Positions 5,521-61,605 of a stretch of 64,000 bases of DNA are shown one piece after another. Both the position numbers and the translations under genes were made by a program. This DNA is from Neocallimastix sp. 'constans' (lineage: Eukaryota). Where the stretch lies: the NCBI GenBank assembly GCA_050613775.1, contig JBODTK010000152.1, forward strand, positions 124,001-188,000, read 5' to 3'. Each line of letters starts with the position of its first letter. Positions within the stretch are counted from its first letter, which is position 1. Below the pieces are notes generated by a model. It had not been told where the DNA came from. It saw only the letters and a program-made list of their open reading frames with translations, and made no database searches.

Positions 5521-6033
5521 AATTTTACTGACTGAGTGATAAGAATGTACTAAATAATGCATTCTTAATTAAATCTACGATTTATTTCTAATACATTATG
5601 TGTACATTATTATTTTTGTACTTTAATAAATTTTTAAATTCAAAGATTAAAAATTAGATCAAAAATTATATTAAACTTTATAATTTTTATATTAAATCTT
5701 ATATTAATAGTAATATTTTTATATATTTAAAACTTATATTAGCAATATTAATAATAAATCTTATTTTTTTTATATTAATAATGAAAATTTATATTAATAA
5801 TATTTTTATATATTGATAATTAAAAATTTATATATTATATTTTAACTTTTTATTATAAAATTTTATATCGAAATGTTTTATTTTATATTGAAAAATATTT
5901 TATTTTATTAAAAACCTTTATATTAGAATAGTATTTTTATTTTTATTTGAATATTTTAACAGATTGTAATAAAAATTATAGCCAATTAAATAAATTCTTA
6001 TTAGTAATATTTTAGATATTTTTAAATAAATAA

Positions 6034-6076
<43 letters not shown>

Positions 6077-6383
6077 TTTTATTAATATTATAAATGTATT
6101 TTATTTATATTGTTATAATTAAATTTTATATAATTAATTATAAAAATCAATTTAAATTTAATAGTTTTTAAAAAAAAAAAAAATAAATAAAATGTAATTT
6201 AGTGGCAAGAACAACTTTTATGCCTTGAAAAAAAGTATAAATAGTTGTAAATTTTGCTACTAATTTTTAAATATCATCAAATAAAATCAAATAAATTTAT
6301 AAATAAAAATAATAAATAAATAAATAAAATTTGTGTTTCCTTACTTTATTTTTATTTAATTCTCTAAAACCTTAACATTTATA

Positions 6384-6401
6384 TGGTGGAGATATCGGGG
6401 A
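6384..6401 (+). promoter_or_regulatory. Primer binding site, probably tRNA-Ala (G1)
   Basis: TGGTGGAGATATCGGGGA is complementary to a 3' end ...UCCCCGAUAUCUCCACCA typical of tRNA-Ala; identical in G2. Confidence 0.8.
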
Positions 6402-7072
6402 ATTAAATAGAAATAATAGTAAATAACATAGATTTTTTTTTAATTTTTTTTTTATTTTATATTGATAAACAAGTAAGTCGTTAATCCTTTGATTAACCCA
6501 TGGCGCTTGTTTGATATATATATATAAAAAAATTTTTTTTAAATAAGTAAAATTAAGATTCTAAAAAAACAAATTTTGTAAAATTATAACAAGGAGCGGA
6601 TAGAGCTCATACACAGTGTATTCTCAGATAGCAACAAATTAACTCTATTCATAGTAGGTTATTGAATAGTAGTTAATTTGGAGATTAATTGGAAAGTAGA
6701 CGAAGGTATTTGGTTACCGACCCGGTAATAATAGTTCAACCTTCAACGTTTCAACACACGAAGGTGCGGGTACTTTCCAAGCACTGGCGAATAAGGAGCT
6801 TACGTCACCGAAGGCGTAAGATTGTTTTTTTTTATATATATTTTTTTTTACTTTTCTTTGTGCTAGTTATAAGGCACTTTATTATATAAAGTATCAGACT
6901 TTGGCTAACTTCGCCATTTAAATTTTTTTTATTTTTTTTTATTACTGATACTTTATTTGTTTAATAATTCCTGTAAAAGAATCTTAATTTACTTGAAAAT
7001 ATTGTGTTTTTAGTTAATTTTTATTAGTTAATAAAAATATTATTGAATACTTTTAAAATTTTTTTTTTATTC

Positions 7073-7232
7073 CGTACATAGATTATCGGATTAAGTTTAT
7101 CCTACATAGTAATTGGGCTAGTAGGCTCTGAACTGCTATATTTTATATTGAATATAGTAATCGTGGCACACGCGTGGCATGACACCATTAGGTAAGCTGC
7201 ACGTCAGACAGTGTGTACTATCAGATTGTACG
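7073..7232 (+). ncRNA. Conserved structured RNA element in G1 5' leader
   Basis: Near-identical to 15064-15229, with compensatory changes in stems. Confidence 0.75.
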
Positions 7233-7400
7233 ACAATAAAGATTATTTTTTTGTATTTAATAATTATAATTAATTAATAATTTTATTAGCTATAACAATA
7301 CAATATTTATCGTTTAAAAAGAAAAATTTTTGAAAGGTGAAAATAATAAATAAAACTTTGCTTCTAAATTTATTACTACAAATATACTAAATTACAAAAT

Positions 7401-7592
7401 TCAAGTGGTCGATAAAGGTTTCGAGCTTGAAAAATATTCTATTGAGTTGTCGATAAAGATTTCGAACTTAAAATTATTCTATTGAGTTGTCGATAAAGAT
7501 TTCGAACTTAAAAATTATTCTTAATAAAGTAGTCGAAAAGAACCTCGTGCTTTATAATTTCTACTAAGTTGTCGATAAGGATTTCGAGCTTA
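7401..7592 (+). repeat. Five ~40-bp tandem hairpin repeats in G1 leader
   Basis: Unit (t/a)aagt-tg-tcga-taaagatt-tcga-actt repeated at ~7401, 7441, 7481, 7525, 7565. Confidence 0.85.
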
Positions 7593-7766
7593 TATCTACT
7601 AAAGAAAGCAAATAAAATTATTATTTTCAAAAGTTACTAAAATATATTGTTTTAAAAATTGATTCGATATTAAATTACCTATTAAATTATATTTTTAAAG
7701 TTGTATTTCCAAATTTATTCTTATTTAATCACCTCATTAATATACAACAAGAAATATTTAAACAAA

Positions 7767-8678
7767 ATGTCCAAGGAAACAACTTTGAGCTTTAAAGAAT
7801 TGAAAAAAGAATTAAGAGATATTGTGAAACTTAGCAAGGACAATTTAGATATTAAGTCCTGGGCTACTGAATTAAAACTTTGGATCAAGATACAAGGTAT
7901 TACAGATCCAGAAACAATATTTAATGCTTGTTTACTTACCAGCTCTGGTGAAGTACAACGCGTTATTGAAGATTTGGGAGAAGATAGTGATGATGAAAGT
8001 GATGATTCATCAGATGAAGAAGAAGAAGATGATGAAGAAGAAAATGTTGATGATGATATTAAATTTCCTTCCCTTGAAAAAATTATTTCAAGTCTTGAAA
8101 ATTTTTACGGTATTAAAGAAGACCAAAATTTACTTCTTAAAGAACTTCGTGCAATGCGAATTAAAAGAAACGAAAAGATTAAAGACTTTAATGTAAGATA
8201 TAGAACTTTGTACACTAAACTTGATAAAAAGAGAAGAAAGCGCATTGGTGTACTAGATTATATTGATTCTATTCAAAATAATTATGAAGCCTGGAAGAAA
8301 TTATCCCTTAAAGATGATATAAGTATGGATAAAGCTTTCAAAATTGCCGAGAAAGTAGATAGACTTTCTGTAAGGAACAATAATATTAATACCTATAATG
8401 TTAATAATTCCCAACATAATCAAAATAATCAAAACAGTACTACTTCAAGACTTTATCCTAAAAGAAGAAACGAAACTTTCCAAACAAATCAAACAAATAA
8501 TAAACCGAAACCTCAAGATATTATAGAAGAATCAACCCAGAAAATGAGAAATTTATCCGTTAAAACTTGCTTCTTCTGTAAGGAAGAAGGTCATTACTCA
8601 TATTATTGCCCTCAATTAAATAAGATTATGGAAAAAAATAAAAAAGAAATATATTCCAAAAAGTCTTTAAACTTCTAA
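7767..8678 (+). CDS. gag: Gag of G1 (acidic tract, CCHC zinc knuckle)
   Basis: ATG at 7767; CFFCKEEGHYSYYC knuckle; homologous to 15386-16303. Confidence 0.92.
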   Translation: MSKETTLSFKELKKELRDIVKLSKDNLDIKSWATELKLWIKIQGITDPETIFNACLLTSSGEVQRVIEDLGEDSDDESDDSSDEEEEDDEEENVDDDIKFPSLEKIISSLENFYGIKEDQNLLLKELRAMRIKRNEKIKDFNVRYRTLYTKLDKKRRKRIGVLDYIDSIQNNYEAWKKLSLKDDISMDKAFKIAEKVDRLSVRNNNINTYNVNNSQHNQNNQNSTTSRLYPKRRNETFQTNQTNNKPKPQDIIEESTQKMRNLSVKTCFFCKEEGHYSYYCPQLNKIMEKNKKEIYSKKSLNF

Positions 8679-8718
8679 ATGGGAGCAGAAGCACTCCCAA
8701 TGACAAAACAATAGCTTC
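8666..8718 (+). promoter_or_regulatory. -1 ribosomal frameshift signal (T TTA AAC + H-type pseudoknot), G1
   Basis: Slippery heptamer in gag phase; -1 frame is open into pol; stems gggag/ctccc and gaagc/gcttc. Confidence 0.85.
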
Positions 8719-12676: not shown

Positions 12677-13191
12677 GTCTTCGTCGGGGCATCTTGATAA
12701 GAATGTACTAAATAATGCATTCTTAATTAAATCTACGATTTATTTCTAATACATTATGTGTACATTATTATTTTTGTACTTTAATAAATTTTTAAATTCA
12801 AAGATTAAAAATTAGATCAAAAATTATATTAAACTTTATAATTTTTATATTAAATCTTATATTAATAGTAATATTTTTATATATTTAAAACTTATATTAG
12901 CAATATTAATAATAAATCTTATTTTTTTTATATTAATAATGAAAATTTATATTAATAATATTTTTATATATTGATAATTAAAAATTTATATATTATATTT
13001 TAACTTTTTATTATAAAATTTTATATCGAAATGTTTTATTTTATATTGAAAAATATTTTATTTTATTAAAAACCTTTATATTAGAATAGTATTTTTATTT
13101 TTATTTGAATATTTTAACAGATTGTAATAAAAATTATAGCCAATTAAATAAATTCTTATTAGTAATATTTTAGATATTTTTAAATAAATAA

Positions 13192-13234
<43 letters not shown>

Positions 13235-13539
13235 TTTTATTAATATTATAAATGTATTTTATTTATATTGTTATAATTAAATTTTATATAATTAATTATA
13301 AAAATCAATTTAAATTTAATAGTTTTTAAAAAAAAAAAAAATAAATAAAATGTAATTTAGTGGCAAGAACAACTTTTATGCCTTGAAAAAAAGTATAAAT
13401 AGTTGTAAATTTTGCTACTAATTTTTAAATATCATCAAATAAAATCAAATAAATTTATAAATAAAAATAATAAATAAATAAATAAAATTTGTGTTTCCTT
13501 ACTTTATTTTTATTTAATTCTCTAAAACCTTAACATGAG

Positions 13540-14085: not shown

Positions 14086-14884
14086 TGAGTAATACAGAAT
14101 GAACAAATAATACTAATTGTGCTAGAATAATATAAATTATTCTAACCTTATAGATTATTCTATTCTATATAATTGGAACTTTCCAATATTCTTCAAATAT
14201 TACTAAATAGAAATCTTAAGTTAATAAATCACTAATTAACTTATAATTCCTTTTTGAATTATCGATCCGATTCCATTATAATGTATTAAAAATCTTTAGC
14301 CAAGAATATTGTCCTTGCCCACTTAATATATTAATATTATATTTCTTTTGTATTATGTTATATTGAAAATAATCAAATCTATTTAATTAGTTATTAAAAT
14401 TTTCGTTATCAATTTAAATTTATTTTTAATTACTAAATTTAACTAAACCACAATAAAATATTCTGTATAATCTCTTTATTTTTATTTTATATATATTAGT
14501 ATTAAACTATTATTAAATAATTAATAATTCAATAATATATAACTACTATTTATAACAATAATATTATTAACTAAAATAATAATTCAATTTCAATTTAAAT
14601 GTTTTATTTATAAAAATAATTAGTAATTAGTTTATTAAAAAAATAGTTAGGCTTTACAAATTTTAATTTGATAAAAAAATATAAATACATGTAATTTTAG
14701 TGAAATAAAATATAATCAATAACTTTCTTTTTATTAAATAAATAATTATATTATTATTTTTCTTTTATAAATTTAAATAAATAAATATTGATTTTAAAAC
14801 AAATTATTTTTTTTATTGTAATTTTATTATTTGTATTAATTATTATTATATTCCTAAAAATATATGAACCATACCATGAAAAAT

Positions 14885-14902
14885 TGGTGGAGATATCGGG
14901 GA
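14885..14902 (+). promoter_or_regulatory. Primer binding site, probably tRNA-Ala (G2)
   Basis: TGGTGGAGATATCGGGGA, identical to the G1 PBS. Confidence 0.8.
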
Positions 14903-15063
14903 ATATAATAATAAATTAATACATTGGGGATAAAATTATAATATTAATAAATAATTTTTCTAATAAAACAAATATTTTTTTAAAAAAGAAAACAATTTTT
15001 ATATTTTTAACTAATTATTATTAATTGTTAAAAATATTAATTAATATTAAATTAAACTAATAT

Positions 15064-15229
15064 TCGTGCATAGATTTCCGGGTTAAGTTTATCCTACATA
15101 GTAATTGGGCTAGTAGGCTCTGGACTGCTATTTTTTATATTGAAAATAGTAACCGTGGCACACGCGTGGCATGACACCTTTCAAGAGGTAAGCTGCACGT
15201 CAGACAGTGTGTACTATCAGATTGCACGA
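15064..15229 (+). ncRNA. Conserved structured RNA element in G2 5' leader
   Basis: Closing stem tcgtgca/tgcacga; internal stems cctac/gtagg and gcacac/gtgtgt; homologous to 7073-7232. Confidence 0.75.
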
Positions 15230-15385
15230 TTATTATAATTTAATAAATGATTAATAATAATAAATAATTAATAATTTTATTAGTTAAAAGATTTATTTTT
15301 TTTAATTTTTTTTTATTTTTACTTTTTTATAACAATTTATACATTACGAGGTTTAGCATTCTATAGATACAATAAATTTTATTTT

Positions 15386-16303
15386 ATGAGAACATCCAGT
15401 ACTTCCAGTACTCCAACAGAGAGTACTCCAGAAAGTAAGCTTAGCTTCAGAGAATTAAAGAAAGAATTAAAAGATTTTGAAAAGCTTACTAAACAAAACC
15501 TTGACATCAACTCCTGGGCAAATGAGTTAAAGGCATGGATAAAATACCAACATATCAAGGATCCTGAAACTATTTTTACTGCTTGTATATTAACGGCTTC
15601 TGGAGAACCAAGAGAAATTATTCAAGAACTAGAAGATGGAAATGACCTTACTGAAGATGAAGATTCTGATTTCGATAGCGATAGTGAAGGAGAAGATGAT
15701 GAAGAAAGTGAATCTACTACCACCTACCCAAGCCTTGATGAAATCATAAATCATCTGAAGACTTTCTATGGACTTAAAGAAGATCAAACCAACTTGTTAC
15801 GAGAATTGCGTTCCATGAAAATAAAGAAGAACGAGAAAGTTAAAGATTTTAATGTCCGTTATAGATCTTTGTACCATAAATTGGATAAAAAGAGAAGAAG
15901 AAAAATTAGTGTTTTAGATTATGCAGATTCCTTAACCAATAATCCTGACGCATGGAGAAAGGTTATGCTTAAAGACAATATTTCTATTACTAAAGCATTC
16001 GCTATAGCTGAAAAAGTTGATCGTTTATCTATTAAAAATAGTACTGAATATTATGATAAGACTCGTTACAATCTCCTTAACTCTAAAAGTAATTTTAATA
16101 AGAACATTTCAAATGATTTTAACAAACCAAAAACCCACAAAAATGTATCTATAGAAAATCTCACTAACAAGATGAAAGAAATGAAAATTAGTACTTGCTG
16201 GTTTTGTAGCAATGAAGGACATACCAAACGAAACTGTCCTAAATTAAATTCTATATTGGAAAATAACCGCAAGAAGTTTTATGAAAATTATTTAAACCAC
16301 TAA
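15386..16303 (+). CDS. gag: Gag of G2
   Basis: CWFCSNEGHTKRNC knuckle; homologous to G1 gag. Confidence 0.92.
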   Translation: MRTSSTSSTPTESTPESKLSFRELKKELKDFEKLTKQNLDINSWANELKAWIKYQHIKDPETIFTACILTASGEPREIIQELEDGNDLTEDEDSDFDSDSEGEDDEESESTTTYPSLDEIINHLKTFYGLKEDQTNLLRELRSMKIKKNEKVKDFNVRYRSLYHKLDKKRRRKISVLDYADSLTNNPDAWRKVMLKDNISITKAFAIAEKVDRLSIKNSTEYYDKTRYNLLNSKSNFNKNISNDFNKPKTHKNVSIENLTNKMKEMKISTCWFCSNEGHTKRNCPKLNSILENNRKKFYENYLNH

Positions 16304-16343
16304 AAGGGAGTAGAAGCACTCCCATCGTCAAAAAAATTGCTTC
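16291..16343 (+). promoter_or_regulatory. -1 ribosomal frameshift signal, G2
   Basis: T TTA AAC in gag phase; stems gggagt/actccc and gaagca/tgcttc; -1 frame continuous with pol. Confidence 0.85.
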
Positions 16344-19300
16344 AGTCTGCCATCGTCCCAAAACAGTTGACTTAAAAGAAGATGATGATTATGAAGAAAT
16401 TGCTGATTTCCAAGAAGGTACTACTACGGATTATTACGAAGATTTTGATGATGAGTCGGATGGTTCCAAAGAATTGGATTACTTAGTAAACGTTATAAAG
16501 AGAAAGGCAAATCCTAAAGATGAAGAGACTAGTGACCAAAGAGGAAAGAGGGTTCACCGTAGTCTAAGAGATGATCCTAAGCCAATAGTTACTCCAGGTT
16601 TACGAAAACAAAAAGAAAATCAATTAAGGGGAACATCGCGACCAGTCAAAAAGCCAACAACTCAATTACATCCTTCGATTATGACTCAACCCAGAATAGA
16701 GAAAGAAAAGAGGATTGAGAAAGAGCTAAGAGATAAGGAAAGAGCTAGTACTAGTACTTCTGTGGAAAATAATAAAAATAGTAATGTTAATATTATTAAT
16801 GAAGAAACTTCTCAGGAAAGAAATAATTCTAAACAAACTTTAAATAAATTAATTCAAGAAAAATCATCAGAAAAATCAACTGAAATTATGCCAACTAGAA
16901 TTCCAAAAAGAATACAAATGCAAACTGATTGTGATAGTTATGACGTGATCAAAGATTTAAACTCCAGTAATTGCAATATTACATTTGGACAATTATTGGA
17001 CGTTGCTCCAAAGATACGGTCTCAAGTATCACAAGGACTTAAATTAGAAAAGAATAATACTAAAATTTCAGGTGCAGTGGATAATATGTGTGCTACTACA
17101 ATAATAACAAACAATATAGATCATACATATAAAAGTAAACATCATGAACCACAAGAAGATGATATTGCTATGGTTGATGTAATAGTAGATGGAGTTCGTG
17201 GTAAGGCTTTAATAGATTCATGTAGCAACTTAAGTATTATCACAAAGCAATTTTTAGATAAATTACCTTATCAGTATGAATCTATAGGAGTTAGTGCAGG
17301 ACGAATACGTTTAGCAACGATGAATGATGATTACTCAGAAGATGTGTTAATCAAAGTTCCCGTAAAAATTAATGAACTAGAACTACTTGTTACGTGTAGA
17401 ATTATAGACAAGGAGGATCCATTCTATGATATATTAATCAACCTCAAAACTCAAATTGATAACCAGTTATTTATACATCCAATTAGATATAGTCTTTGTC
17501 GATTTAATGATCAAGGTTTAATTGAAGAAATTGCACCTATTAATAATGAATATGATGACGAAGAAAAATTATTATGTGTAATCAAAGCATTGAATCACCA
17601 AGAAGCTAAGCAACAATTGAAAACGATTGAAGGATTACCACCCATAAAATATATATATGACACAGTTTTTCAAAGTACAATTAATTCAAATTATAGAGAA
17701 GCTATTGCTAAATTACTTGAAGAATATATTGATATAATTCCAACTTCTTCTGAAGAATTAACACCTTCAGATTTATCACCACACAAAATTATTCTTAAGG
17801 AAGGAGTTAAACCTATTAAACAAAAATTTTATCGACTTAGTAAATTAAAAACAGATATCTTAAAAGAAGAATTAACCAAACTCATATATAAACGATTAAT
17901 TGAACCTTCATGTTCAGAATGGTCATCACCAGTAGTACTTGTGCCTAAAAAGAACGGTAAATGGCGCCTGTGTATTGACTATAGGAAAGTAAATGAAGCA
18001 ACTAAGAAGGATTCTTATTCTTTACCAAATATTGAGGAAATTTTTGATAGCTTAGATGGAGCAAAAATCTTCTCAACATTAGATCTTTATTCCGGTTATC
18101 ATCAAATATTAATGGATGATGATAGTGTTGAAATCACTACCTTTACAACTAAGTTCGGAAACTACCAATTCAAGGTAATGCCCTTCGGTTTAACAGGTGC
18201 TCCAGCTACATTCCAAAGAGAAATGAACCGTATACTATTTCCCTTAATAGGAAAATGCGTCTATAACTTTATCGATGATATTTTAATCTACTCAAGAACT
18301 GAAGAAGAACACCTAGAACATCTTAAACAAGTCTTAGAAATATTCAAGGAACATAAGTTAAAAATCAATATTGAAAAATGTTCTTTCATGCAAACTGAAG
18401 TAGAAGTACTGGGACATAAAGTATCCTCAGAAGGTTTAAGTCCATTGGAAAACAAAGTTAAAGCTATTAAAGAATGGAAGGCTCCCTCTAACATTCATGA
18501 ACTTCGATCATTTTTAGGAGCCATTGGATATTATAGAAATTTTATTAAGGACTTTGCAAAAGTTACTGCTCCTCTCTGCACTCTATTAAGAAAAGGTATT
18601 AAGTTTGAATGGAAAAAGGAACAAGAAGAAAGTTTTAAAATTCTTAAGGAAAGATTAATCAATGCCCCAATATTAAGATTTCCTAGATTTGATAGAGAAT
18701 TTATTATAAGAACAGATGCTTCCTATGATGGAATAGGCGGTGTGCTTTTACAAAAGGATGATGAAACTGGAAAGGAGCATCCGGTTCATTATATTAGTAG
18801 AAGTTTATCTAAATCGGAAAAGAATTATGGAATTACGGATCTAGAAGGTGCTGCTCTAATTTACTGTATTAATAAATTAAAATCTTATATTATGGGAAAT
18901 CCTAAGCAAACTATAGTATATACAGATCATAGACCATTAATCGGATTACTTAAAAGTAAGGAACCACAAAATTCTCGTCATACTAGATGGTGTTTGACTG
19001 TCAGTATGTTAGGAATTGATTTACGATATGAAACTGGAAAGAATAATGTTGTCGCAGATGCTTTATCAAGAATGAAAAATGAAAAAGAAAAAATTGTCTT
19101 AACAACACAAATTATCAAGGAACAAGATGAAAACCTGCTTTCAAGAACCATTAAGGAATTTATTGAAGAAAAATTTACGACAATTGATGGTGTGGACTAC
19201 TTTGTTGATGGCAATAATTATAGAAAATTAGTTACAGATACAAAAGAAAAACTTCAATTAATTTTTCAAGCACACAGTATAGGACACGAAGGCTATTACA

Positions 19301-20293
19301 AGACATACCAACGTTTGAAAAAGAGCTACTATTGGAACAATATGGTTAATGACATTAAGCGAATTATAGGTAAATGTGAAAAATGTCAATTAAATAAATC
19401 TCAACCATACCCTGAACCAACGGAAGATAAACCAACTGAAGTGGAAGGACCATTTATACACTTAGGATTGGACATTATAGGACCTCTAAGTAAAACCAGA
19501 AATAATAATCAATATATAATCGTTGTGGTTGATTATTTTACTAAATGGGTTGAGGCAGAGCCCACTGAAAATGTTACTTCTCAGGATGTGATAAAATTTT
19601 TAATTAATGTATTTGCTCGACATGGTGTACCTCAAATTATCACTACTGATAATGGAACACAATTTACATCAGATATGACAAAATTCTTCCTTGATTTATA
19701 TGATGTATATGTTAAATTTATCACTCCATATCATCCTGAAAGCAATGGTTTAGTTGAGAATCGTAATAAAGAAATTGGAAAATTATTACGATTACTAGGA
19801 AAACAACACAAAGAATGGGATGAAATTTTACCATCTGCACTTTGGGCTTTAAGAACTACTAAAAACTCAATCACCAACCATTCAAGTTTTGAATTAGTTT
19901 ATGGAAGGGAGGACCAACAACCTTTTGACATTGCTGCCAGACCAACTAAAGGTATAAATAAGTCTTCTGACGAAATTCTACTGGAAAAATTTGTATCACA
20001 CTACCAATGGGTAATGGAGGCCGCATCTAATATCAAAAATGCTTCGAAGTATTGGGCTACTAGGAGAGAAGAAAAGACCAGTATGAATCAAGCTAAAAGA
20101 ATAAAACCAGGTGATTTAGTACTAGTAAGAAACTTTAATCGAACTAAATTAGAACCTTACTTTGTTGGACCTATGAAAGTGGTAAAGTAACAATTCAATA
20201 CAGTCACTTTAGCTGATCCTGCTACTAATATACAAATGAATCGTAATGTTCATTTGAAAAATATTGTCAAGTTTAACTCAGCTTCTACCTAGC
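16291..20293 (+). CDS. pol: Pol of G2 with a premature TAA (20188-20190) in the integrase C-terminus
   Basis: Same domains as G1; after the stop the frame continues QFNTVTL...RNVHLKNIVKFNSAST*, matching the G1 C-terminus. Confidence 0.93.
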
Positions 20294-21459
20294 TTGAGTC
20301 TTAGCGGGGGCATCTTAATACAGAATGAACAAATAATACTAATTGTGCTAGAATAATATAAATTATTCTAACCTTATAGATTATTCTATTCTATATAATT
20401 GGAACTTTCCAATATTCTTCAAATATTACTAAATAGAAATCTTAAGTTAATAAATCACTAATTAACTTATAATTCCTTTTTGAATTATCGATCCGATTCC
20501 ATTATAATGTATTAAAAATCTTTAGCCAAGAATATTGTCCTTGCCCACTTAATATATTAATATTATATTTCTTTTGTATTATGTTATATTGAAAATAATC
20601 AAATCTATTTAATTAGTTATTAAAATTTTCGTTATCAATTTAAATTTATTTTTAATTACTAAATTTAACTAAACCACAATAAAATATTCTGTATAATCTC
20701 TTTATTTTTATTTTATATATATTAGTATTAAACTATTATTAAATAATTAATAATTCAATAATATATAACTACTATTTATAACAATAATATTATTAACTAA
20801 AATAATAATTCAATTTCAATTTAAATGTTTTATTTATAAAAATAATTAGTAATTAGTTTATTAAAAAAATAGTTAGGCTTTACAAATTTTAATTTGATAA
20901 AAAAATATAAATACATGTAATTTTAGTGAAATAAAATATAATCAATAACTTTCTTTTTATTAAATAAATAATTATATTATTATTTTTCTTTTATAAATTT
21001 AAATAAATAAATATTGATTTTAAAACAAATTATTTTTTTTATTGTAATTTTATTATTTGTATTAATTATTATTATATTCCTAAAAATATATGAACCATAC
21101 CACTGAGGATTTCGTTACAATTACAAAAATTTATATTTTGTTGTAGTGCATTTCGGAAAACATGGCGTATTATAATGTAATAAATAAATAAATTAATAAA
21201 TTAATTATAAATGACTAAAAAAATTTTTTTTAGAAAATTAAATAAAAAAAAATATAATTATTGTATATATAAAATAATTATTATATTTTTTTATTTTATT
21301 TTAAATATTATTAATTATTATCAATACCTTGTTTATATTATCAACAGAATTACATACGTAATTACATAATTGAATAATTAAAAAAAATAAATATAAAAAT
21401 AGGTTTATAATTAGTACTTTTCATAATATTATATTAAAGTATTAATTTTATAAATTAAA

Positions 21460-22805: not shown

Positions 22806-23018
22806 AACTAGTATCAAATATATCGGTTTTAGTTATAAATTACTTAATAAAAATAGCTAAAAGATAATTTCTATTAAGATTATTAAATAAACACAATAGG
22901 TAAATAAATTTGTATTTTTTTAAATTAAGATTATTTAATTATTATTTAAACGATTATAAATATAAATTTAAAATAAATAAATTTGTATTTTTCTAGCATT
23001 TTTTTAAATTAAGATTAT

Positions 23019-24475
23019 TTATTTTAAATTAATATTTATATCGTTTAAATCAATTAAACAATCTTTCCATAATTTAACTAATTCATTTCTGTTGCATCCA
23101 TTATAAAATAAATTGATTTCCTTACTTTTGTAATTTTCAATTAAAATTTTAATTTCATCAGTTGCACTAAATATTTTTTGCTTTTTTTTTCCCCCAAGTT
23201 CCTTTAGTTCTCCTTTGGTAATCATTATAAGATAAGTTTTCTTCTTCTTTTAATATATATATTATTTTATAAAATAAAGGTTTATTTGGAAATATATTAT
23301 TTAAGTAGCTATTATAAGATTCTGATGCATTGTTTGTTAAATGCTCTATATTTTCATAATAATTCCAATTATTAACATTATACTTAAGTAAATAATTTTT
23401 ATTAAAATACTCTAAAAATTGTAGAAAATTATTATACTTTTTTTTGACAAATTCTTTTTATTATAATATAAAAATCAAATATATAGTTAGGGTTTATAAA
23501 CGGTAAGTTCGAAATAGCTTTATAATAAATATATACATCATTATTATTCTTCACTTCATGATAACATAATATATTTTTTTGTTTTTCTAATGATCTTTTG
23601 TAATGCCAAACACAATATTTAATATTTATATTGGGAAAAATTTTTTTTGCGGCATTAGATATACCTTGTTCAAAATCACAATGAAAATTAATTGTAGTAA
23701 TTAATGTATTACTCCTAAATTTATTTGCATTTTTTTTTTTTCTTTAAATAATGTTTCATATGTAGATTGTTTTTTATTTTTTAATATAGAAATGGAAGTA
23801 GTGTAAAACATATTAAATTCCCCAACATAAGTTCTTGTTATAAATAACTGATAACTAAATTTCGGTGCTGCATAAAATGTTCAGTCCGCAAATATATTTT
23901 TATGATAATTCGAAAATAAATATGCTTGGAATGGTGATTGAAAGATTATTAGATCAGTATTTTTAAATATCATAAAATTTTCAATTCTTTTCGTTTTATA
24001 ATTTTTTGATTCAATGGGAATATCATCAAAACTTTTTATGTTTGGAGGAAATTGTTTATTTATATTTCTTATTATTTGGGATTAAATTGTACTATATTCG
24101 GGACATATAAGCCCCCATTTCTTGAGAAACGGCATTAAATATATGTTTAGGTTTTATAACCATAGGAATTGAATTTTTCCTAATTTCTTCCTTAATTTTA
24201 TGTTTTGCTACTGATATAGACACATCAATTTCTTTTTCGAGATGGTTATGTAAACTTTCATATTTTAAAACCTCCTTTTTATCATTTAAAATAATTAAAG
24301 ATTTTCATTTATTTAAAGTCATATATTCAGTGCATCTATAAATTTTTGATATCTTTCCTTTGAAATGAAAAATTAAATTTGTATTTTTTATTAATAATAA
24401 TTTGTTCATTTCCTCGATTTGTTTCATTTATTTCAATTTCTATATTGTCTTCAATTGATAATTAAAATTTTCCAA
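23019..24475 (-). pseudogene. MULE (Mutator) DDE transposase, frameshifted
   Basis: Minus-strand motifs ETNRGNEQIIINKKYKF, IFAD, HCDFEQ, YCVWHYK, TNNASES; homologous to 37192-38594 and 62555+. Confidence 0.88.
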
Positions 24476-25813
24476 TAAAATATTTAATAAATATACTTTT
24501 AAATGCTTTGAAACTTTTACTTTTTTAATATTTAAAATAATAATTCTTTTTTAATTAATTATATAATTATTTAAATAATTATTTAATTATTAATTATTTA
24601 TTATTTTTTTATTTACTATTTTATTAATTTATTTTTATTTTTTTTTTATTTTTATTGTTTATTTTATTTTATTTTTTTTATTTTTTATTTTATTTTTTTT
24701 TTTATTTTTTATTTTACTTTTTTTTTTTTATTTTTTAATGTTTAAAAAAAAAAAGTTTTCTTATTATTTTATTTTATTTTTAAATGTTTAAAAAAAAATT
24801 TTTTTGTATTTCTTATTTTTTTTTTTTTTTTATTTTTATTTTATTGTTCAATGTTTAAAAAAAAAATGTTTATTTAATTTTATTTTATTTTTTAATGCTT
24901 AAAAAATAAAATATTTATTTATTTTTATTTGATTGTTCAATGTTTAAAAAAAAAGTTTTCTTATTTCTTATTTTTATTTAATGTTTTATTTATTGAAGTG
25001 TTGTATTTCGCCAAAAGTTGAATTTCGTCCAGTTGAATTTCGCCAAATTCTTGGTAGCTTATAAATTTACGTCATAAAATATCACCACAATTATTATTCA
25101 CGTCATATTGTGAATATATGGCTTTTTAAAAATTGTAGAAAAAAGACACAAAATTATGATACAATTAGATATACGCCCCACGTAAGATTACGTGTTTGAA
25201 AATTTTTGAGAATTGTAATTTTATTTAATTATTTAATTAATTATTTTTCGTTAAAATTTTAATAAAATTAAGTGGCTTAAAATTAAAAATATTTAAGCCA
25301 TATAACAAAATACAAATTTTTGTAATAAAAATTTTCGAAATGCACACTCCCCTAAGTCATGTATTTAATATAATAAAAATGTACGTTCCATTGAATGTGA
25401 ATATAAAAAATAAAAAATATTAAATCATGTATTATTATTATTAAAAAAAAAAAGGTTCTTTAATAAAAATAAAAATTTTAGTAAAAAGAAAATATTTATT
25501 TACGATTTTTTGTCAAAATTGATAAAAAGTATTTAAAATAAATAAATAAATACATAAATAAATAAATAAATAAATAAATTAAAATTAAAAAAAATCTATA
25601 TATAAAAAGAAAAAAAATTCTTTTAATTTTAATTTTTTTTAATGTAAAGAATATATTTTTTTTTGAAGAATATATCTTTAAATAAATATATAACTAAAAT
25701 ATTCTTTAAAAATAAAAAATAAAATATTTTTGAAATTCTCATTATATATATATAAAAAAATAAAATATTATTGAAATCTGTAAGAAGAGTATTTAAAAAA
25801 AAAATTAACAATT

Positions 25814-36581: not shown

Positions 36582-38687
36582 GAATGTGAAGCATTTCGAC
36601 ATAATTTATGTATAATCATCATAAATTTTTGTACAATGTGTATAATATATGTAATACGTCACTATTTTCAACGTATATTTTTATTTATTGTTTTTTAGCA
36701 TTAAAAAAATAAAGTAAAAACAAAAAAAAGAATAAATAAAAGAATAAATGTATTTTAGTATTAAAAAAAATAAAATAAAAACAAAAAAAGAATAAATAAG
36801 TTTTCTGTTGAGAATTTTATTTTATTTTTATTTTTTTTAATTTTATTTTATTATTATATTTTATTATTAAATATTTTAATAATAAAACCTTTGAATTTTA
36901 TTTTATTCAAATAAAATAAATAAAATTATATATTTTATTATTAAATTAATTAAATAATAAAATAAAATTTATTATAATATTAAATATTTATTATTAATAA
37001 AATTTAAATATTGATATTGATATTAATAAAATATTTTGATATTGATATTAATGAAATATTTTGACATTGATATTAATAAAATATATTGATATTGATATTA
37101 ATAAAATATATTGATATTGATATAAATATAATTTAAACTATATATATTCTAGTTAATTATTATTCATATATTTAGAGTGTATTTAATTCTATTAAACATT
37201 TATACCATAAATCAATGATATCAATTTTTCACATTTTTTATCAACTAATCGGATTCCTTTTTTTTTGTATTTTTTAATGAAATCATTGATTTCATCAGTT
37301 TTTGTTAATATTCTTTTTTTTTTCCAAACTCCTTCAATTTTCCTTTTGTAATTATTGTAAGATAAAGATTCTTCTCTTTTTAAATGATAAATCAATTCAT
37401 ATAAAGAAGGTTTTTTGTAAAACAATTTTTTTAAGTAATTGTTAAAAGATTCTGAAGCATTATTTGTTATGTGGTTTACATCGTTATAATAATTCCAATA
37501 TTGAATATCATATTTATATAAATTAGTCTTATTAAAATATTCCAAAAAATTTAAAAAATTGAAATAATTATATATTTGACATATAATTTTAATATAATTA
37601 TAAATATCAAATATATATTCAGGATTTATAAAAGGAAAATTTGTAATAGCTTTATATAACAAATAAATTTTATGATTATTTTCAACTTCATTATAACATA
37701 ATTTATTTTTTTGAACTTCAAACGATCTTTTATAATGCCATACACAATATTTAATAATAATATTATGAAATATTTTAATGGAAGCATTGAATATATTTTT
37801 TTCAAAATCACAACGCAAAATTTTTGGTATAACTATAATATTATTATTATAATTACTTTCATTCTTTCTTAATTCTTCAAATAACAATTCATAGGTTGCT
37901 TGTTCTTTATTATTTAATATAGATAGTGATGTAGTATAAAAACTATTTATTTCTGGAGCAAATACTCTTGTTATAAACATTTGATAACCAAATATTGGTG
38001 CAATATAAAATGTACCATCAGCAAACATATGTTCGTTGTATTTTATAGACAATTCTGTTTGGAATGGGGAATGATGATTGAAAAATTATAACATTAGAAT
38101 TTTTGTATATCATAAAATTTTCATCTCTTTCGTTTATATAATATTCATATTTATCTGGAATTTCATTAAATTTTGATATATCAGGAGGTAGTTGTTTTTT
38201 AATATATCTTGATATTTGGGATTTAATTGAATTATATTCAGGGCATATCAATCCAGTTTCTTCAAATATTTCATTATATATGTTTTGGATTTATATCAAA
38301 TGGGATTGAGGTTTTTCTAATTTCATTTTTCATTTTATGTTTTACTATTGATACAGATGCATCATATTCTTTTCCTGGATAAGTATGTTTGTTTTCATAT
38401 TTTATTACTTTATTATTATCATTTAGATCATTTAGAATAATGTAAGATTTACATTTTTTAACTGTTTTATATTTAGTACATTTGAATATTTTTGTATTAT
38501 TCGTTATATACCATAAATTAAATTTATATTTTCTATTTACAATGATTTGGTTTTTTTCTTTATTAGTTTCACTTATTTCTAATTGATCATCCATTTATTA
38601 TAAATATTTTAAATTAAAAGTTTTATTTTTTATATTTTAATTTTTTTTGTTTTAATCTATTTTTTTTTATCTTATATTTTATTTTAT

Positions 38688-38732
<45 letters not shown>

Positions 38733-39114
38733 TTTTTATTTTATATTTTACTTTATTATTTATTTTTTTTTATCATATATTTTATCTTATACTTTTTTTT
38801 TATTTTTTATTTTACTTTATTCTTTTTTTTATATTTTATATTTTACTTTATTATTCTTTTTTTTTTTTATATTTTATATTTTACTTTATTATTTATTTTT
38901 TTATATTTTTTATTTTACTTTATTATTTATTTTTTTTATTTATTTTTTATATATATATTTTTTTTACTGTAAATGTTTTTAAAATTAAAAAAAAAAAAAT
39001 AAAAATAAAAATAAAAATAAATTTAACCCTATTCCTATTCATTTATTTTTACAAGCCACATTGTAATACATGAATAAATGATCAAACATAAATTATGTCG
39101 AAATGCAATACTCC
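36582..39114 (-). mobile_element. MULE DNA transposon (2.5 kb) with frameshifted transposase
   Basis: TIR core gcatttcgacataatttatg / cataaattatgtcgaaatgc; 9-bp TSD gaataaaat (36573-36581 / 39115-39123). Confidence 0.9.
37192..38594 (-). pseudogene. MULE transposase in three frames
   Basis: ORFs 38274-38594, 38018-38251, 37192-38052 with FADGTF, CDFE, CVWH and NNASES motifs. Confidence 0.9.
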
Positions 39115-53073: not shown

Positions 53074-54933
53074 TAAATACTATTGTTTAATATATCTAAA
53101 GAACTTCTATAGTTTATATTAATAATGTAAATTTTTTTTTAAAAAAAAAAAAATTACAGAAGGAATTATAGAGATATTATTATATAAATATTTGAGTAAA
53201 TATGTATACTCTATTAATATTATATAATTTTTTCTTGTTTTAGACAATTTAAATACAAATAATAATTTTAAATTTCAATAATAGTTTTACTAAAAAGAAA
53301 GCTGATCATAAAAAATGAAATATAAAAACTAATGCCATTAAAAATAACAACATCGATAATAACAAAAACAACAATAATAATGGTGACAACAATGCTAAAA
53401 AAAGTTATCAGCACAATTATGATCCTAATTATTCTAAAAATATAATTATAATTCTCATGATATAAAATTATCCGATTTGTTGTTAATAGAAGATGGAAAA
53501 TATATAAATTTATCTGAATTTGAAACCTACTTATTTAAGTATGGTAAAAAATATGGAAAGGCTTTAAAATATAAAATACATGAAAAATTTTATATGAAAG
53601 ATGAAAATCTTTTATGTAATATTAAACATTCAAATAAAAAACAAAATAAGATTAAGAAAATAGAATATTCAACTATATATCATCCGAACTTCAATAGAAA
53701 GCAAAAAGAAAAATATTTAATAAAAAAAAATTAAAGAAATTAATATTAACAATTCCATAAATCATTCATTAATAAGTAATTTAAATAATAAATATAGAAA
53801 TAGAAATAAAGAAATGTCTAAATTAAGTAATTACTATGATGATAATAGTAGAGAGAGTATTAAATATGAATAATAAAATTTATAGAACTAAATCCACATC
53901 AAATTCTGATTCTCATTCTGATACATCCGAAAATTATAAATAAATGAATAAAAATTATAATGATAAATTGAGGGAAAATGTTGAAATATTAAATTCTAAA
54001 GAGTATATGAATAATCATAACAACAAGATACTATTGAAAAAAGAAAAATTTCAGAAGATGAAAAAGATTTTCCAATATTTAAATATTTCTTTTATCCAGG
54101 ATGGTATCATTATCAAAGATATTATACTAATGATCTAAATATTTATAATACTAATAATGATAATTCAGATAATGGAAACGATAGGTAATTTTTATTAGAA
54201 ATAATTAAATTAATATTAAAGTAATTATTATTAATATTTTTAATTTATTATTAACTCAAATAAAAAATATATAATATATTTTATAATTATAATATATAAA
54301 GTCAGGAAATTAAAGATGTTTATATTGATGATGAAGCTTTAAAAAAACTTATTGAATAAAGAAAACAAAAAATAAAAATAAAAATAAGAAAAAAAATTTT
54401 TAAAAGAATTTTTTTAAAAGAATTATTTATAGTATCATTTGAAACAAATAATTGTAAAAAATTCATCAATTGTTGATAAATCTTCATTTTAATAATAATT
54501 TCAGGTGTTAGTGAAGATTCCAGAGAAAAACAAATAGATGATTTTGTATGAAAGAAAATAGGATTCCTAAGTATTGATAAAGTGAAAAACCGTATTTTAA
54601 TAAGAAAAACATAAATTATGTAGGATGAATAGTCACAAAAAGAAATTGTATTAAAATTTGGTATGAGAAAAGTAATGTTATAAATTTAAAACGTACAAAA
54701 TAAATTTTAGAAAAGTATTATTAAATTATAAAGTATCATTTAAATGTTATGTATAATATTATTGGCTTTGATAAAAAAAAAGATTGTCTCTATTAAAGAG
54801 ATAAAAAAAATAATAAAATAACAAAATAACAAAATAACAAAATATATATATATATAATAATAATAATAAAAATAAATAATAAAATAATTATAATTATAAT
54901 TATTAAAATTATTATAATTATTGTAATAATAAT

Positions 54934-55141
54934 TATTAAGAGTCAGGAATTTATGGTTTATAATTATGTCAATTTTATTAATATATTTTATGATAAAGAG
55001 TTACTAACACTTAATTATTCTAAATTAAATGCTTTTATATTAATACATTGTGGCTTATTCATTAATTATATTACAATATGTTTCAATACATTTGAAGCTT
55101 ATTTTTATATACATTTTACAAATTTTAACATTCCCCCTTAA
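54934..55141 (-). mobile_element. Copia-type LTR + PPT (same family as 60319-60524)
   Basis: gataaagagttactaacacttaattattctaaattaaatgc shared; ends ttaaca followed by ttcccccttaa. Confidence 0.75.
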
Positions 55142-55430
55142 TGTAACGAATCCTAAAATTTGGTATGGTTCATATAGTTTTAGGAATATAATAATAATTA
55201 ACACAAATAATAAAATTACAATAAAAAAATTTATTTTAAAATCAATATTTATTTATTTAAATTTATAAAAGAAAAATAATAATATAATTATTTATTTTAA
55301 TAAAAGTAAGTTATTGATTATATTTTATTTCACTAAAAATTACATGTATTTATATTTTTTTATCAAATTAAAATTTGTAAAGCCTAACTATTTTTTTAAT
55401 AAACTAATTACTAATTATTTTTATAAATAA
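55142..55430. mobile_element. Start of tRNA-cassette-family LTR (55142-55160) joined to an inverted G2-family LTR fragment (55161-55430)
   Basis: tgtaacgaatcct matches the reverse complement of the host-LTR end at 21106-21119; tggtatggttcatata... is the reverse complement of the G2 LTR 3' end. Confidence 0.8.
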
Positions 55431-55440
55431 TTAGTAATTA

Positions 55441-56538
55441 TGTAAACATAAATTCATTATTTGCTTAGATCTTCGTTCGGCCTACAATCAAATTAGAATT
55501 ACAGACCCTGTAACTAAAGAAGCAACTGCCTTTATCTGTGAATGGGGTATCTATACGTGGAATGTAATGCCTTTTGGATTAAGCGATGCTCCTCCCTTTT
55601 TCCAGGCTTTTATGAACAATGTACTTTTTGATAAATTATTCAACGGAGTATTATGTTATTTAGACGATGTAGTCGTATACGGCGACACCAAGCTTGAATG
55701 CCTAAATAACTGTAAATGGGTATTAGAACAATTCAGAAAGTTTAATCTTTACTGTAAAATTGAGAAGTGTCAATTCTTTCCATCAAAAATTGAATACCTT
55801 GGCTTTCTTATTAAAGAAGGTGCCTATACTCCTCTTAATTTAAATAAACTAAGTGGAATTTCTTGTCCTAAATCTTTAAAAGAACTTCAACAAGTTCTGG
55901 GTCTTCTTAATTGGTTTTCCGACTTTATTCCCAAATATGCGGAAATTATTAAACCTCTTTCAGATAATCTTTCATTCTTTAACGCCACTTCTGTTCAAAA
56001 ACATTTTTACGATTGTATACATAAGTTAGAAACTTTTCCTCGTGCCGCATTTAATTTTGATGAACAGTTTATTTTAGTCTCCGATGCTTCCGAATTTGCG
56101 GGCTCAGGTGTCCTTTATCAAATTCCGAAAGAGGGGGAAGATTTGATAACCAACCAATTAATTAATAGCAATAATAACAAAAATATTACATCAGACTTAT
56201 ATAAGAAAAAACAGATAAAACTAATTGGTTTTTACTCATTCAAATTTGATAAAAGCCAACTACATTATTCTATGTTTGACAAAGAGTTATTATCAATAAT
56301 AAGAACATTGGAACATTTTTCCTATTTTACATCAAACACTAAATATCCAATCATATGTTTAACAGACAATAGTGCCTCAAAGGAAATATTAAATGGAAAT
56401 TCTCAAAAAGTAGTAAACAATAGACGAAAAAGGTATATTGAAAGACTATTAGAATATAAGGTTAAAGGAATCCATATAAAAGGCAAAACTAACGATATTG
56501 GTGATTGGCTAAGCCGATTACATTTTGAAAATAATTAA
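55441..56538 (+). CDS. 5'-truncated RT-RNase H ORF ending directly after RNase H (no integrase)
   Basis: LDLRSAYNQIRI, YTWNVMPFGL, YLDD, SDAS, DKELL, TDN, HIKGKTNDIGDWLSR then stop; frame open from 55441. Confidence 0.88.
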   Translation, partial: CKHKFIICLDLRSAYNQIRITDPVTKEATAFICEWGIYTWNVMPFGLSDAPPFFQAFMNNVLFDKLFNGVLCYLDDVVVYGDTKLECLNNCKWVLEQFRKFNLYCKIEKCQFFPSKIEYLGFLIKEGAYTPLNLNKLSGISCPKSLKELQQVLGLLNWFSDFIPKYAEIIKPLSDNLSFFNATSVQKHFYDCIHKLETFPRAAFNFDEQFILVSDASEFAGSGVLYQIPKEGEDLITNQLINSNNNKNITSDLYKKKQIKLIGFYSFKFDKSQLHYSMFDKELLSIIRTLEHFSYFTSNTKYPIICLTDNSASKEILNGNSQKVVNNRRKRYIERLLEYKVKGIHIKGKTNDIGDWLSRLHFENN

Positions 56539-57245
56539 TATATTTAATAACATTTAAATTAGTATATTTTTATCCAATTAAATAGGTTATAAGTCAGTGA
56601 ATAAAACTGATACCTTTAAATAAATAATTAAATATAAATTAACATGTAATTTCTTAAAAATATTAATCTTTATTATTCTTTTGAAAAACTTGTTGATATA
56701 TAATTGTAATATGAATAAAGGTTTCTTATTCATAACAAAAAATAAATAATAAGTTTTTCATAATTAAAATATTTTATAATAATAAAATTTATAACTTTTA
56801 ATTAATACTAATATCAATAAAATAATAAAATAATAAAATACTAAAATTATAAAACAATAATTAATATAAAACTAAATACCATTAAAGTGTATTTGACTTA
56901 TTATACGTGTTTTCTTTTCATAAGTTTTTCCACAATACAATTATATTGTTCATAGGAGATTCTTATAAGAATCGTAATTAGCAATATTCTCCCTGAACAT
57001 ACTGCAGATTAGGTCGTGTCTAGTCTAATATTGTAATCATCCGCGAATCCTGGGTTTAAGAATCAAAAAGCCGTGCTACATTGCAAAAGTAGCCTAAACT
57101 CCAAAAGTCACACTTAAAATAAAAAAGCTACCAGGTTTATAGGCTGTCACCTTTTCCCTAAAGGATAGACCGGACAAGCTGAAAAATTTAAAGAATTTTT
57201 TTTTCAAAAGAATAATCTTGGAGAAGCTATCCGTGCCCTTATATT

Positions 57246-57611
57246 ATGAACTCCTATTACATCCAATTCAAGGGTGAAATTTGGGATATAGAAAATTCAG
57301 ATTATCAAAACTACTTTACTGATATTACCCCATTTTCTACTTGTTCCGAAGTAGAAGTATATCAATACGGTTCAGCTCAAATAGAAGTAATTGAGAACGA
57401 ACCAATAATACAAGAATTTACTGGAAAATTCGAATTTGTCTATAAGAATAAAACCATCGGATTTTGGGAAATCCCACAAGAACATAATCAATTTGAACTC
57501 GCCTGTTTAGGCCTTACTTCTATTTATAAAAACTTCAATAAGCAAAAGGAAAGAGGTATTCCTTTTAAGCTAGACACATTTCTAGCCGATATTGCCATAC
57601 GAAAACTTTAA
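57246..57611 (+). CDS. Hypothetical 121-aa ORF1 of the retroelement-like unit
   Basis: Intact intronless ORF with element-like base composition, abutting the next ORF. Confidence 0.65.
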   Translation: MNSYYIQFKGEIWDIENSDYQNYFTDITPFSTCSEVEVYQYGSAQIEVIENEPIIQEFTGKFEFVYKNKTIGFWEIPQEHNQFELACLGLTSIYKNFNKQKERGIPFKLDTFLADIAIRKL

Positions 57612-57615
57612 ATTT

Positions 57616-59841: not shown

Positions 59842-60318
59842 ACCGGACAAGCTGAAAAATTTAAAGAATTTTTTTTTCAAAAGAATAATTTAATTTGTGA
59901 AAATTAAGTTTCAAAATTTAATCATGACTCCTTTAACATTGTTTTTAAGGGGAGAGCGCGTTTCGGAACCGCACGTGAATATATATAAGCCACATGTTGA
60001 GATGGCGTATTATATATAAATTTTTTTATATAAATAAATATGTTAAGTATTAGCTACATTATAATTATACATTATACATTGTAATATTAATACGCCACAA
60101 TTAACCACATTATGAATACATTAGTTATTAGATAGTTATTAAATAGTTATTATAAATCTTATTTATTATATTTTGTTAAACTGTAATATTCTCTATTATG
60201 TAATATTCATATAATTAAATATAAATAAATAAAAGCCATATTAACTATAAATAATCATAATTGAAATTGTTAGATTTCAGTTACATTCTTAACAAAATAA
60301 TTAAATAATAATTAAATA

Positions 60319-61605
60319 TGTTAAGAATTAAGAATTTAGGTTTTATAATTATGTCAACTTTATTAATATATTTTTGTGATAAAGAGTTACTAGCACTTAA
60401 TTATTCTAAATTAAATGCTATTATATTAATACATTATGGCTAATACATTATTTATATTACATTACATTTTATTACATTAATCTCATATTCACATATTATA
60501 ACATCATATTCACATATTCTAACATTCCCCCCTAAACCTAGTTTTTCTAAAAGATAAAATTCGGTTTATAGGTGAATATGTGCAAATTACTATTATTCTA
60601 AAATTTAATTTTTACAAAATTTTATTCTCTTTTATAAAATTTTCTTAATTGAAATTTTAAACATTTAATGTATATTTTTATTTATTTTATTCAAAAATTT
60701 ATATTATTAAATACTATTACGTTTTTATGGTTAAACGTTTAAACCTTTAATATAATTCAAACTTAATGTTTATTGTAGGTTGGATACTCTTATGGTTTTA
60801 TACCAATCCTATCTTTATATAAATGTTTATATTTATGGCTACTCTTTAGGTTTTACGCCATTTAATTATGTTTATAGCTACTCGTTAGGATTTACGCTAT
60901 TTGTTTATTGTATGATAACCTCTTGGGTATTACATCATTTAAGAATCAATATTGTATTTATAAATTATTCTTTAATAAAATATGCTATATAATATTCAAA
61001 AGATATTTAATTATCAATTAATGTTTTAATGTTTTCAGTATAATTTTCATTAAGAGTCTCAGTATTGTATGAGGAAATATAATTTATACTAATATATGCT
61101 TAAGCTTGTTTATCTCTATTTATTTAATGTTTCTATATGTTTAGAGCTTTAATTTACTTTTATTCTACTTGGGGATTCTCTTTTATCAACTATATTAAAT
61201 TTTTACGCGTTTCTTCAATTTTTGTAATCTTGATCATTTCAAATGTTCGAAATCAATTTTATTTATTTTTCTAAGATTGACATAATGAGCAACTTTTATC
61301 AATTTTAGTTTCCAATTTATTTCCTTGACATAATATTACATTCGGCTAAGGATTTCTATTCCAAAGAATCCTTTCTAAGAGTCGATGAGACTCTTAATCT
61401 GTTAAGAATTAAGAATTTAGGTTTTATAATTATGTCAACTTTATTAATATTTTTTTGTGATAAAGAGTTACTAGCACTTAATTATTCTAAATTAAATGCT
61501 TTTATATTAATACATTATGGCTAATACATTATTTATATTACATTACATTTTATTATATTAATCTCATATTCACATATTATAACATCATATTCACATATTC
61601 TAACA
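60319..61605 (-). mobile_element. Non-autonomous Copia-derived miniature LTR element (TRIM-like, 1287 bp)
   Basis: 206-bp LTRs 60319-60524 and 61400-61605 (TGTTA...TAACA); TSD aaata; PPT ttcccccctaa at 60525; no ORF. Confidence 0.9.

Follow-up and report, generated by a model that had tools for sequence, protein, structure and literature searches.

Two adjacent and intact Ty3/Gypsy elements, here called G1 and G2, lie on the + strand of the 64-kb stretch of Neocallimastix sp. 'constans' DNA that was analysed (64,000 nucleotides, hereafter the window; Table 1). The LTR pair, the primer-binding site (PBS), gag, a pol with the order RT, RNase H and integrase, the PPT and the target duplication by which Ty3/Gypsy elements are recognised were all found. 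The Gag proteins of G1 and G2 are similar to CCHC/Ty3-capsid clusters, and their named relatives, which make up 7 of 65 matches, are Orpsp1 and Neocallimastix records, in keeping with a host from the Neocallimastigomycota. The two elements have in common the PBS, which we take to correspond to tRNA-Ala, a near-identical PPT and a predicted -1 frameshift signal in the gag-pol overlap (UUUAAAC plus a GGGAG/CUCCC hairpin); no tRNA genes were found in the window. Their proteins are only 51-52% (Gag) and 63% (Pol) identical, and the fourfold-degenerate sites of pol are 40% identical, with 37% expected by chance (n=232).

The sequence TGAG borders both elements (5533-5536 and 13536-13539 for G1, 14086-14089 and 21104-21107 for G2), whose insertions are ~550 nt apart, which suggests a common target-site preference. 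The G2 LTR begins with TA, not TG, and a 290-nt piece of it (94-96% identical) occurs reversed at 55140-55430 (- strand), within an unrelated Gypsy-like element (54844-61610; RT 55438-56538, long ORF 57586-59841). A MULE/FLYWCH-type DNA transposon occurs elsewhere in the window in three copies (23015-24930, 37153-38984 and 62066-63995) that have diverged (~71%), and Copia RT fragments lie at 773-2091.

Table 1. Features of G1 and G2 in the window (positions count from its first letter; helices and domains are predicted)
Feature	Position	Strand	Remarks
G1 5' LTR	about 5537-6378	+	100% identical to the 3' LTR at about 12695-13536
G1 target duplication			TGAG, 4 bp, flanking the LTR pair
G1 PBS	6384-6400	+	17-mer identical in G2
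Second GC-rich leader island	G1 6569-6928; L013 480-839	+	found in the G1/L013 lineage alone; between PBS and head, and distinct from the head motif
G1 whole stalked domain	7011-7292, may reach 6954-7352	+	head plus interrupted AU-rich stalk, including P1a
G1 P1a	7073-7078/7227-7232	+	
G1 conserved head	7081-7222	+	~142 nt, two three-way junctions
G1 P1b	7081-7083/7220-7222	+	
G1 P2	7089-7092/7159-7162	+	
G1 P3 arm	7094-7134	+	U/CUC internal loop
G1 P4	7135-7158	+	loop ends UUGA
G1 P5	7166-7171/7211-7216	+	invariant G-U
G1 P6	7172-7179/7198-7204	+	followed by 4x4 internal loop
G1 P7	7184-7186/7191-7193	+	
Donor-like word G/GYRAG	G1 7192-7197; G2 15188-15193	+	3' strand of P7 and internal loop; a lead only
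Repeated small bulged hairpins before gag	G1 7403-7593	+	four to five copies; absent from G2
G1 gag	7767-8678	+	CCHC knuckle
G1 pol	through 12676	+	RT, RNase H, integrase; joined to gag by predicted -1 frameshift signal at 8666
Predicted -1 frameshift signal	G1 8666-8698; G2 16291-16323		
G2 element	14090-21102	+	LTRs 14090-14876 and 20316-21102, 100% identical
G2 PBS	14887-14903	+	same 17-mer as G1
G2 whole stalked domain	15004-15290	+	56-bp stalk
G2 conserved head	15073-15218	+	
G2 gag	15386-16303	+	
G2 pol	through 20190	+	

A leader motif kept across Gag lineages

The original prediction, drawn from the letters of the window, held that a motif of about 160 nt is nearly identical in the leaders of G1 and G2 despite the divergence of the elements that carry it. 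This is indeed the case: blastn aligns 7073-7232 of G1 with 15065-15228 of G2 at 91.5% over 164 nt (E 1e-63), far above the identities of Gag and Pol. No third copy was found within the window, and in G2 the motif is the sole GC-rich island found in the 500 nt that separate PBS and gag.

An alignment of 48 Gag sequences yielded at least 13 homologous loci from 595 candidate metagenome stretches. The motif is present in all six that span PBS to gag (L013, L014, L016, L018, L020 and L022), in which the PBS was also detected, its identity falling to 45-62% in two of these; no motif was found in the remaining seven of the 13, where the 2-741 nt upstream of the Gag match stop short of the PBS. Since L013 belongs to the G1 family and L020 to the G2 family, the copies represent six independent Gag lineages, whose tree is mostly unresolved. 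L020, identical to G2, was excluded from the seven-copy comparisons, and both L013 and L020 from the AUG counts.

The position of the motif is tied to the PBS and not to gag. In five of the six lineages it lies 130-253 nt from the PBS, the distance being 697 nt in G1 and L013, where another island is inserted, and the gag AUG follows at 168-1384 nt. The PBS-gag leaders measure 0.5-1.85 kb, that of G2 being the shortest, and contain several stable islands. Furthermore, motif identity does not follow Gag identity, as it reaches 93% between G1 and G2 (Gag 52%) and 45% between L016 and L014 (Gag 64%), so that modules may have been swapped between lineages.

A covarying head on a paired stalk

In the predicted fold of the conserved head, P1 closes a first three-way junction with P2 and P5, beyond P2 lies a second one from which P3 and P4 emerge, and the right arm is built of P5, P6, an internal loop and P7, in that order. 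Single-sequence folding is mildly significant (z -2.1 and -2.0 for the two copies). A nested model was drawn from five close copies, for which RNAalifold gave nearly the same helices without P1b; 13 of its 52 pairs are changed on both sides and 96% of its cells are paired, none of 500 shuffles being as good and slid controls giving 0-1 double-changed pairs, in a comparison that ignores relatedness. A stronger test is the recovery of copies held out of the sample: a covariance model built without the metagenome loci L022 and L014 found the motif in L022 at 51.9 bits (E 7e-13) and in L014 at 27.4 bits (E 7e-6), whereas scoring by sequence alone, with a model based on that alignment, reached 35.6 bits for L022 and missed L014 at E<=1. 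Because MAFFT misaligned these two copies, the seven-copy table is anchor-based; fitted to the model, and with P4 of the diverged copies aligned by its loop, it has base pairs in 234 of its 238 cells, and in 20 of the 34 pairs both partners change.

The three differences between G1 and G2 from which a structured RNA had been proposed, in the closing stem, a hairpin and a loop length, are all present. Position 7090 and its partner 7161 form a further compensatory change, from A-U to G-C, and 7131 shows a change to or from a wobble pair. The changes at paired sites are three double, one wobble and none that breaks a pair, with the others in loops, in keeping with the compensatory character ascribed to them. 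Public contigs carry 18 further variant positions within 7073-7232: four fall in loops, six make up three visible compensatory pairs, four are single changes that keep the pair, three have a partner that is not visible and one (7109) breaks a pair. G-U wobbles are common and A-C oppositions absent (0 in 230 cells), which identifies the folded strand as the + strand.

Two linkers (UWYCG and ACU), the basal G-U pair of P5, the CUC strand of the P3 internal loop, the UUGA of loop 4 and the CC/GG pairs of P7 are invariant, or nearly so, in all seven copies. Most of the unpaired segments listed as invariant in the original prediction are not conserved across copies; ttaagtttat is mostly paired (P2/P3a), and taattggg and cagaca are lost in the diverged L022 and L014. 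The covarying helices are all nested, and no pseudoknot candidate of more than 3 bp was found among five aligned copies. In G1 and G2, the search for an 11-nt long-range complement gave none except one AU-rich match. As to dimerisation through the palindrome cacgcgtg, also suggested at the outset, the comparison does not support it, since the palindrome occurs in three of the seven copies compared and is locked within helices P5/P6a; no palindrome of at least 6 nt is common to all seven (L018 has none at all), and homodimer energies of -5 to -10 kcal/mol, obtained with no control set, were given no weight.

The flanks of the head had been described as impossible to align. Their sequence alignment is in fact poor or absent (z -1.3 to 3.3 for 100-nt flanks in six cross-lineage pairs), and yet the left and right flanks pair together as a long AU-rich stalk of about 45-60 bp, the sequence of which is lineage-specific while the pairing is kept. 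In all seven copies, the duplex of the cognate 75-nt flanks reaches -28.5 to -42.4 kcal/mol (z -5.6 to -9.3), with none of 200 shuffles per copy as stable, versus -7 to -27 kcal/mol for cross-lineage pairings and -20.3 at best among 43 AT-rich controls from the window. By a strict walk, five copies have a contiguous stalk of 46-63 bp, G1 one of 91 bp and L022 one of 20 bp; in G1, 51 flank-to-flank pairs form within 70 nt on each side. That only cognate flanks pair strongly indicates that the stalk sequence turns over as the pairing and the head persist. Thus, the conserved head proposed at about 160 nt is real, but because its flanks pair the whole element is larger, about 260-400 nt.

These data bear on the possibility, raised from the start, that the similarity stems from a recent exchange between G1 and G2, by recombination or conversion, with no selection acting on the structure. 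The independence of motif and Gag identities would suit such exchange. Nevertheless, the pairs changed on both sides over seven copies, the retrieval of held-out L014 with structure scoring and not with sequence scoring, the end of similarity at the head edges where flank pairing continues beyond, and the retention also of PBS, PPT and frameshift signal between G1 and G2 render it very improbable as the whole explanation, and the recombination-only reading is largely refuted.

In the two diverged copies, L014 (1425-1690) and L022 (350-620), the P7 loop word is identical and the lower stalk has an additional internal loop in common, UUAGAAG opposite GAAAAUU; they possibly constitute a second subtype of the motif.

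Comparison with known RNAs

Rfam 15 gave no match at gathering for the whole window; the best E values on the two copies are 0.81 and 3.9, ten loci have nothing at E<=1, and the best E for L014 1400-2520 is 2.9. A blastn comparison with phages and plasmids found nothing, none of the 599 pattern matches from a Gag search of the viral_contigs set was confirmed, and two other motif patterns had no match in viral contigs. A 16-mer and a degenerate three-block pattern picked out 10 viral and 25 GTDB loci, respectively; as none of these 35 reaches E<=0.1 with the model, they are regarded as chance matches. No structured leader RNA was described for anaerobic-fungus Gypsy elements in the full-text literature covered, a scope outside which most subscription papers fall. 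With covariation over six Gag lineages, a + strand fold and no Rfam match, the central claim of a new cis-acting structured RNA is supported: the motif is a real, uncatalogued, covariation-supported RNA domain in retroelement leaders.

Two resemblances were considered and rejected. The 4x4 internal loop, which we likened to SRP helix 8, fails in L022. In turn, the lariat-capping (GIR1) ribozyme has a similar size and place upstream of an ORF, and a few short head words seem to us to resemble that of Didymium; these words are lost in the diverged copies, the P7 word that we associate with lariat-capping ribozymes is absent from the motif, and there is no Rfam match. The P3/P15 pseudoknot given as their hallmark in PMC4167309 is also missing, the helices of the motif being nested.

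A new ribozyme, self-cleaving or branching, which in a fraction of transcripts would release gag mRNA from a PBS-bearing 5' piece, appears quite unlikely. It would explain the dense invariant core at the central junction without a protein partner, and the head has the topology of the Neurospora VS ribozyme, with two three-way junctions connected via a short helix and a long internal-loop arm (PMC5573960); moreover, fungal RNA viruses are described as starting translation with 5' UTR ribozymes (PMC13725137). The likeness to VS is one of topology alone, since the head is devoid of the stem-loop I substrate, of a supported kissing loop and of an A756-type loop: the search for VS kissing, A756 and G638 features gave only invariant 3-bp loop-loop matches with no covariation, the P4 loop has neither a substrate stem-loop nor a kissing partner, and G2 has no second hairpin beside the head. 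Rfam gives no ribozyme match, and the words typical of the catalytic cores in the hammerhead, hairpin, twister, pistol, glmS, HDV and group I classes are not conserved. A cut 3' of the PBS would, furthermore, destroy the template for reverse transcription, and RNA or presumed-RNA contigs, which can be DNA, span the head in one piece (X10, 6978-7417; X9, 7091-7228). The broader proposal of a VS-like ribozyme class that, placed on a stalk, would switch genome RNA to gag mRNA, in leaders made of exchangeable cassettes of stalked folds, seems to us a long shot.

Possible roles of the stalked domain

Our preferred reading, to which we give a probability of about 0.4, is that the head on its stalk may be a replication signal that marks full-length RNA for packaging or sorting. 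It is based on position, on presence in the minimal leader and on analogy with caulimovirus leaders, where a packaging signal sits atop a large stem-loop over which ribosomes shunt (PMC5902531). The motif is located 3' of the PBS in the unspliced leader, where a packaging signal is expected, and Ty1 and Ty3 packaging is reported to require 5' sequences or UTRs (PMC4974528 and PMC11381356). The stalk would extrude the head as an independent domain; ribosomes, loaded at the cap, would scan through the AUG-poor linkers and, in part, skip or unwind the stalked domain; and the folded head would be bound by Gag, probably together with a host protein, which would move the RNA from translation into particle assembly. 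A signal common to several lineages could lead to co-packaging and template switching, and hence to the mismatch between motif and Gag divergence.

Like G1 and G2, the caulimoviruses (CaMV/RTBV) and foamy virus have a long leader, a large stem, a conserved element on top and an AU-rich downstream region (PMC5902531, PMC2761275). The large stem-loop with a stable base and AU-rich sequence downstream that characterises pararetroviral shunting is found here. A short uORF ending just before the stalk, searched from PBS to stalk, is present in one of seven leaders (L013) and absent from G2, L016, L018 and L022 (R-U5 was examined in G1 and G2), so the arrangement does not qualify as a caulimovirus-type shunt. 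In addition, unlike in caulimoviruses, the head is a two-junction fold and not a purine-rich loop, it is common to lineages with ~50% Gag identity, and some leaders carry several modules. With the retroviral psi/DIS and Ty1/Ty3 signals, the motif shares a place 3' of the PBS and 5' of gag and a Gag with a CCHC knuckle, but it lacks the conserved exposed palindrome of DIS and Ty elements. Whereas Ty3 has a 5' UTR of 193 nt and its dimer palindrome within GAG (PMC11381356), a dedicated domain of ~300 nt is seen here in a leader of 0.5-1.85 kb.

The main objection to a packaging role is that conservation of the head reaches far past that of Gag (93% versus 52% identity), which suggests a partner more conserved than Gag. 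Such a pattern would suit a host partner or catalysis, and it gives weight to the ribozyme and to the two readings that follow. The packaging signal of CaMV, moreover, is virus-specific (PMC5902531); a conserved palindrome is absent; and the repeated bulged hairpins that precede gag in 8 of the 12 leaders scanned are themselves a rival candidate for that role. These hairpins, with a G-rich bulge and a purine-rich loop, occur in 2-5 pattern-matched copies per leader (G1, L013-L018 and L022) and are candidate nucleocapsid or Gag-binding sites; none was found in G2, L021 or L023, and L019 has a single unrelated match.

The distribution of AUGs bears on how such leaders are translated. Only 3 AUGs occur from PBS to motif (15.0 expected) and 9 from motif to gag (44.0 expected), none of 500 shuffles being as low in either case, while the U3 control is not depleted (13 versus 13.6) and other non-coding DNA of the window slightly so (107 versus 122). 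Depletion on both sides of the motif fits cap scanning with partial bypass and argues against an IRES, one of the functions offered in the original prediction. The argument is weakened by the control word CAT, itself partly depleted downstream of the motif (25 versus 40.7), and by AUG depletion within the head (4 versus 16). The stalked domain has 10 AUGs with ~26 expected and the remaining leader 6 with ~49, so that AUGs are tolerated more inside (p 0.02-0.04); the domain holds 10 of the 16 leader AUGs, above its share, yet is itself depleted.

A translation element, in which the head would recruit 40S or initiation factors (IRES-like) or promote a shunt and so make gag translation possible in the face of a long structured leader, is something we hold to be unlikely. 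The length of the leaders, with their stable islands, and a conservation that suits a conserved host partner speak for it; against it count the purge of AUGs also upstream of the motif, as for cap scanning, an eightfold variation in the distance to the gag AUG with other islands intervening, an AUG inside the head in five of seven copies and the want of a longer pseudoknot candidate.

A U1-binding or export element in the head may be put at a similarly small chance. A word G/GYRA, which we take as splice-donor consensus in its longer form G/GYRAG, stands at one position in all seven copies (the longer form in six), the CC/GG pairs at this site never vary, a branch-like UACUAHC follows 20-32 nt after it, and each leader contains 5-11 AAUAAA; G1 and L013, where the head is displaced, carry an extra GTAAGT ~80-90 nt past the PBS. 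However, the word was noticed after the fact, and words of this kind are no rarity over 142 nt; part of the site is paired, and its GU/GC variation is a plain compensatory change of P7; L022 lacks the G at +5; the spacing from donor to branch is, we assume, too short for an intron; contigs show no joints or deletions across the motif; and this reading leaves the remaining two thirds of the fold unaccounted for. In foamy virus, U1 at the donor suppresses 5' LTR polyadenylation (PMC3694450), which provides a precedent. The residual probability goes to functions beyond packaging, translation, U1/export and ribozyme.

Six of eight runs cover the head, and single contigs cross it with no joint or deletion that removes the motif; some of these contigs are of guessed RNA origin and can be DNA, and they are blind to ends, strand and rare products. 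In X1 and X14, which bear other organism codes, gag is covered from ~7440 and the leader (6067-7430 of the window) is not, a pattern that could reflect a shorter transcript, a different leader or masking; as part of the leader was masked, it was given no weight.

The packaging cis-signals of Ty3/Gypsy elements are not precisely defined to date (PMC4974528, PMC11381356). Here, a single compact and covariation-supported fold is kept over six lineages in which synonymous sites are saturated (as seen for G1 and G2), a fungal lineage of Metaviridae has a head-on-a-stalk leader resembling that of caulimoviruses, and, being the only structured island of the shortest leader, that of G2, the motif lends itself readily to structure probing and to assays of binding and cleavage.

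The leaders of these Metaviridae elements contain further uncatalogued RNA modules. The second GC-rich island is 89% identical between G1 and L013, with no Rfam match (best E 2.2). Others are found at L014 1848-2167 and 2303-2492, L022 866-1045, L019 170-360 and L023 125-320; they fold well (z -2.2 to -5.0), and the L019 and L023 islands are a common one (92%). When the stalk test was applied to seven other islands, with boundaries as chosen, two, both in L014, gave a clear result (z -6.3 and -5.2) and five did not. Altogether, the leaders look like arrays of exchangeable RNA modules. One RNA contig omits 6621-6778 of the second island of G1.
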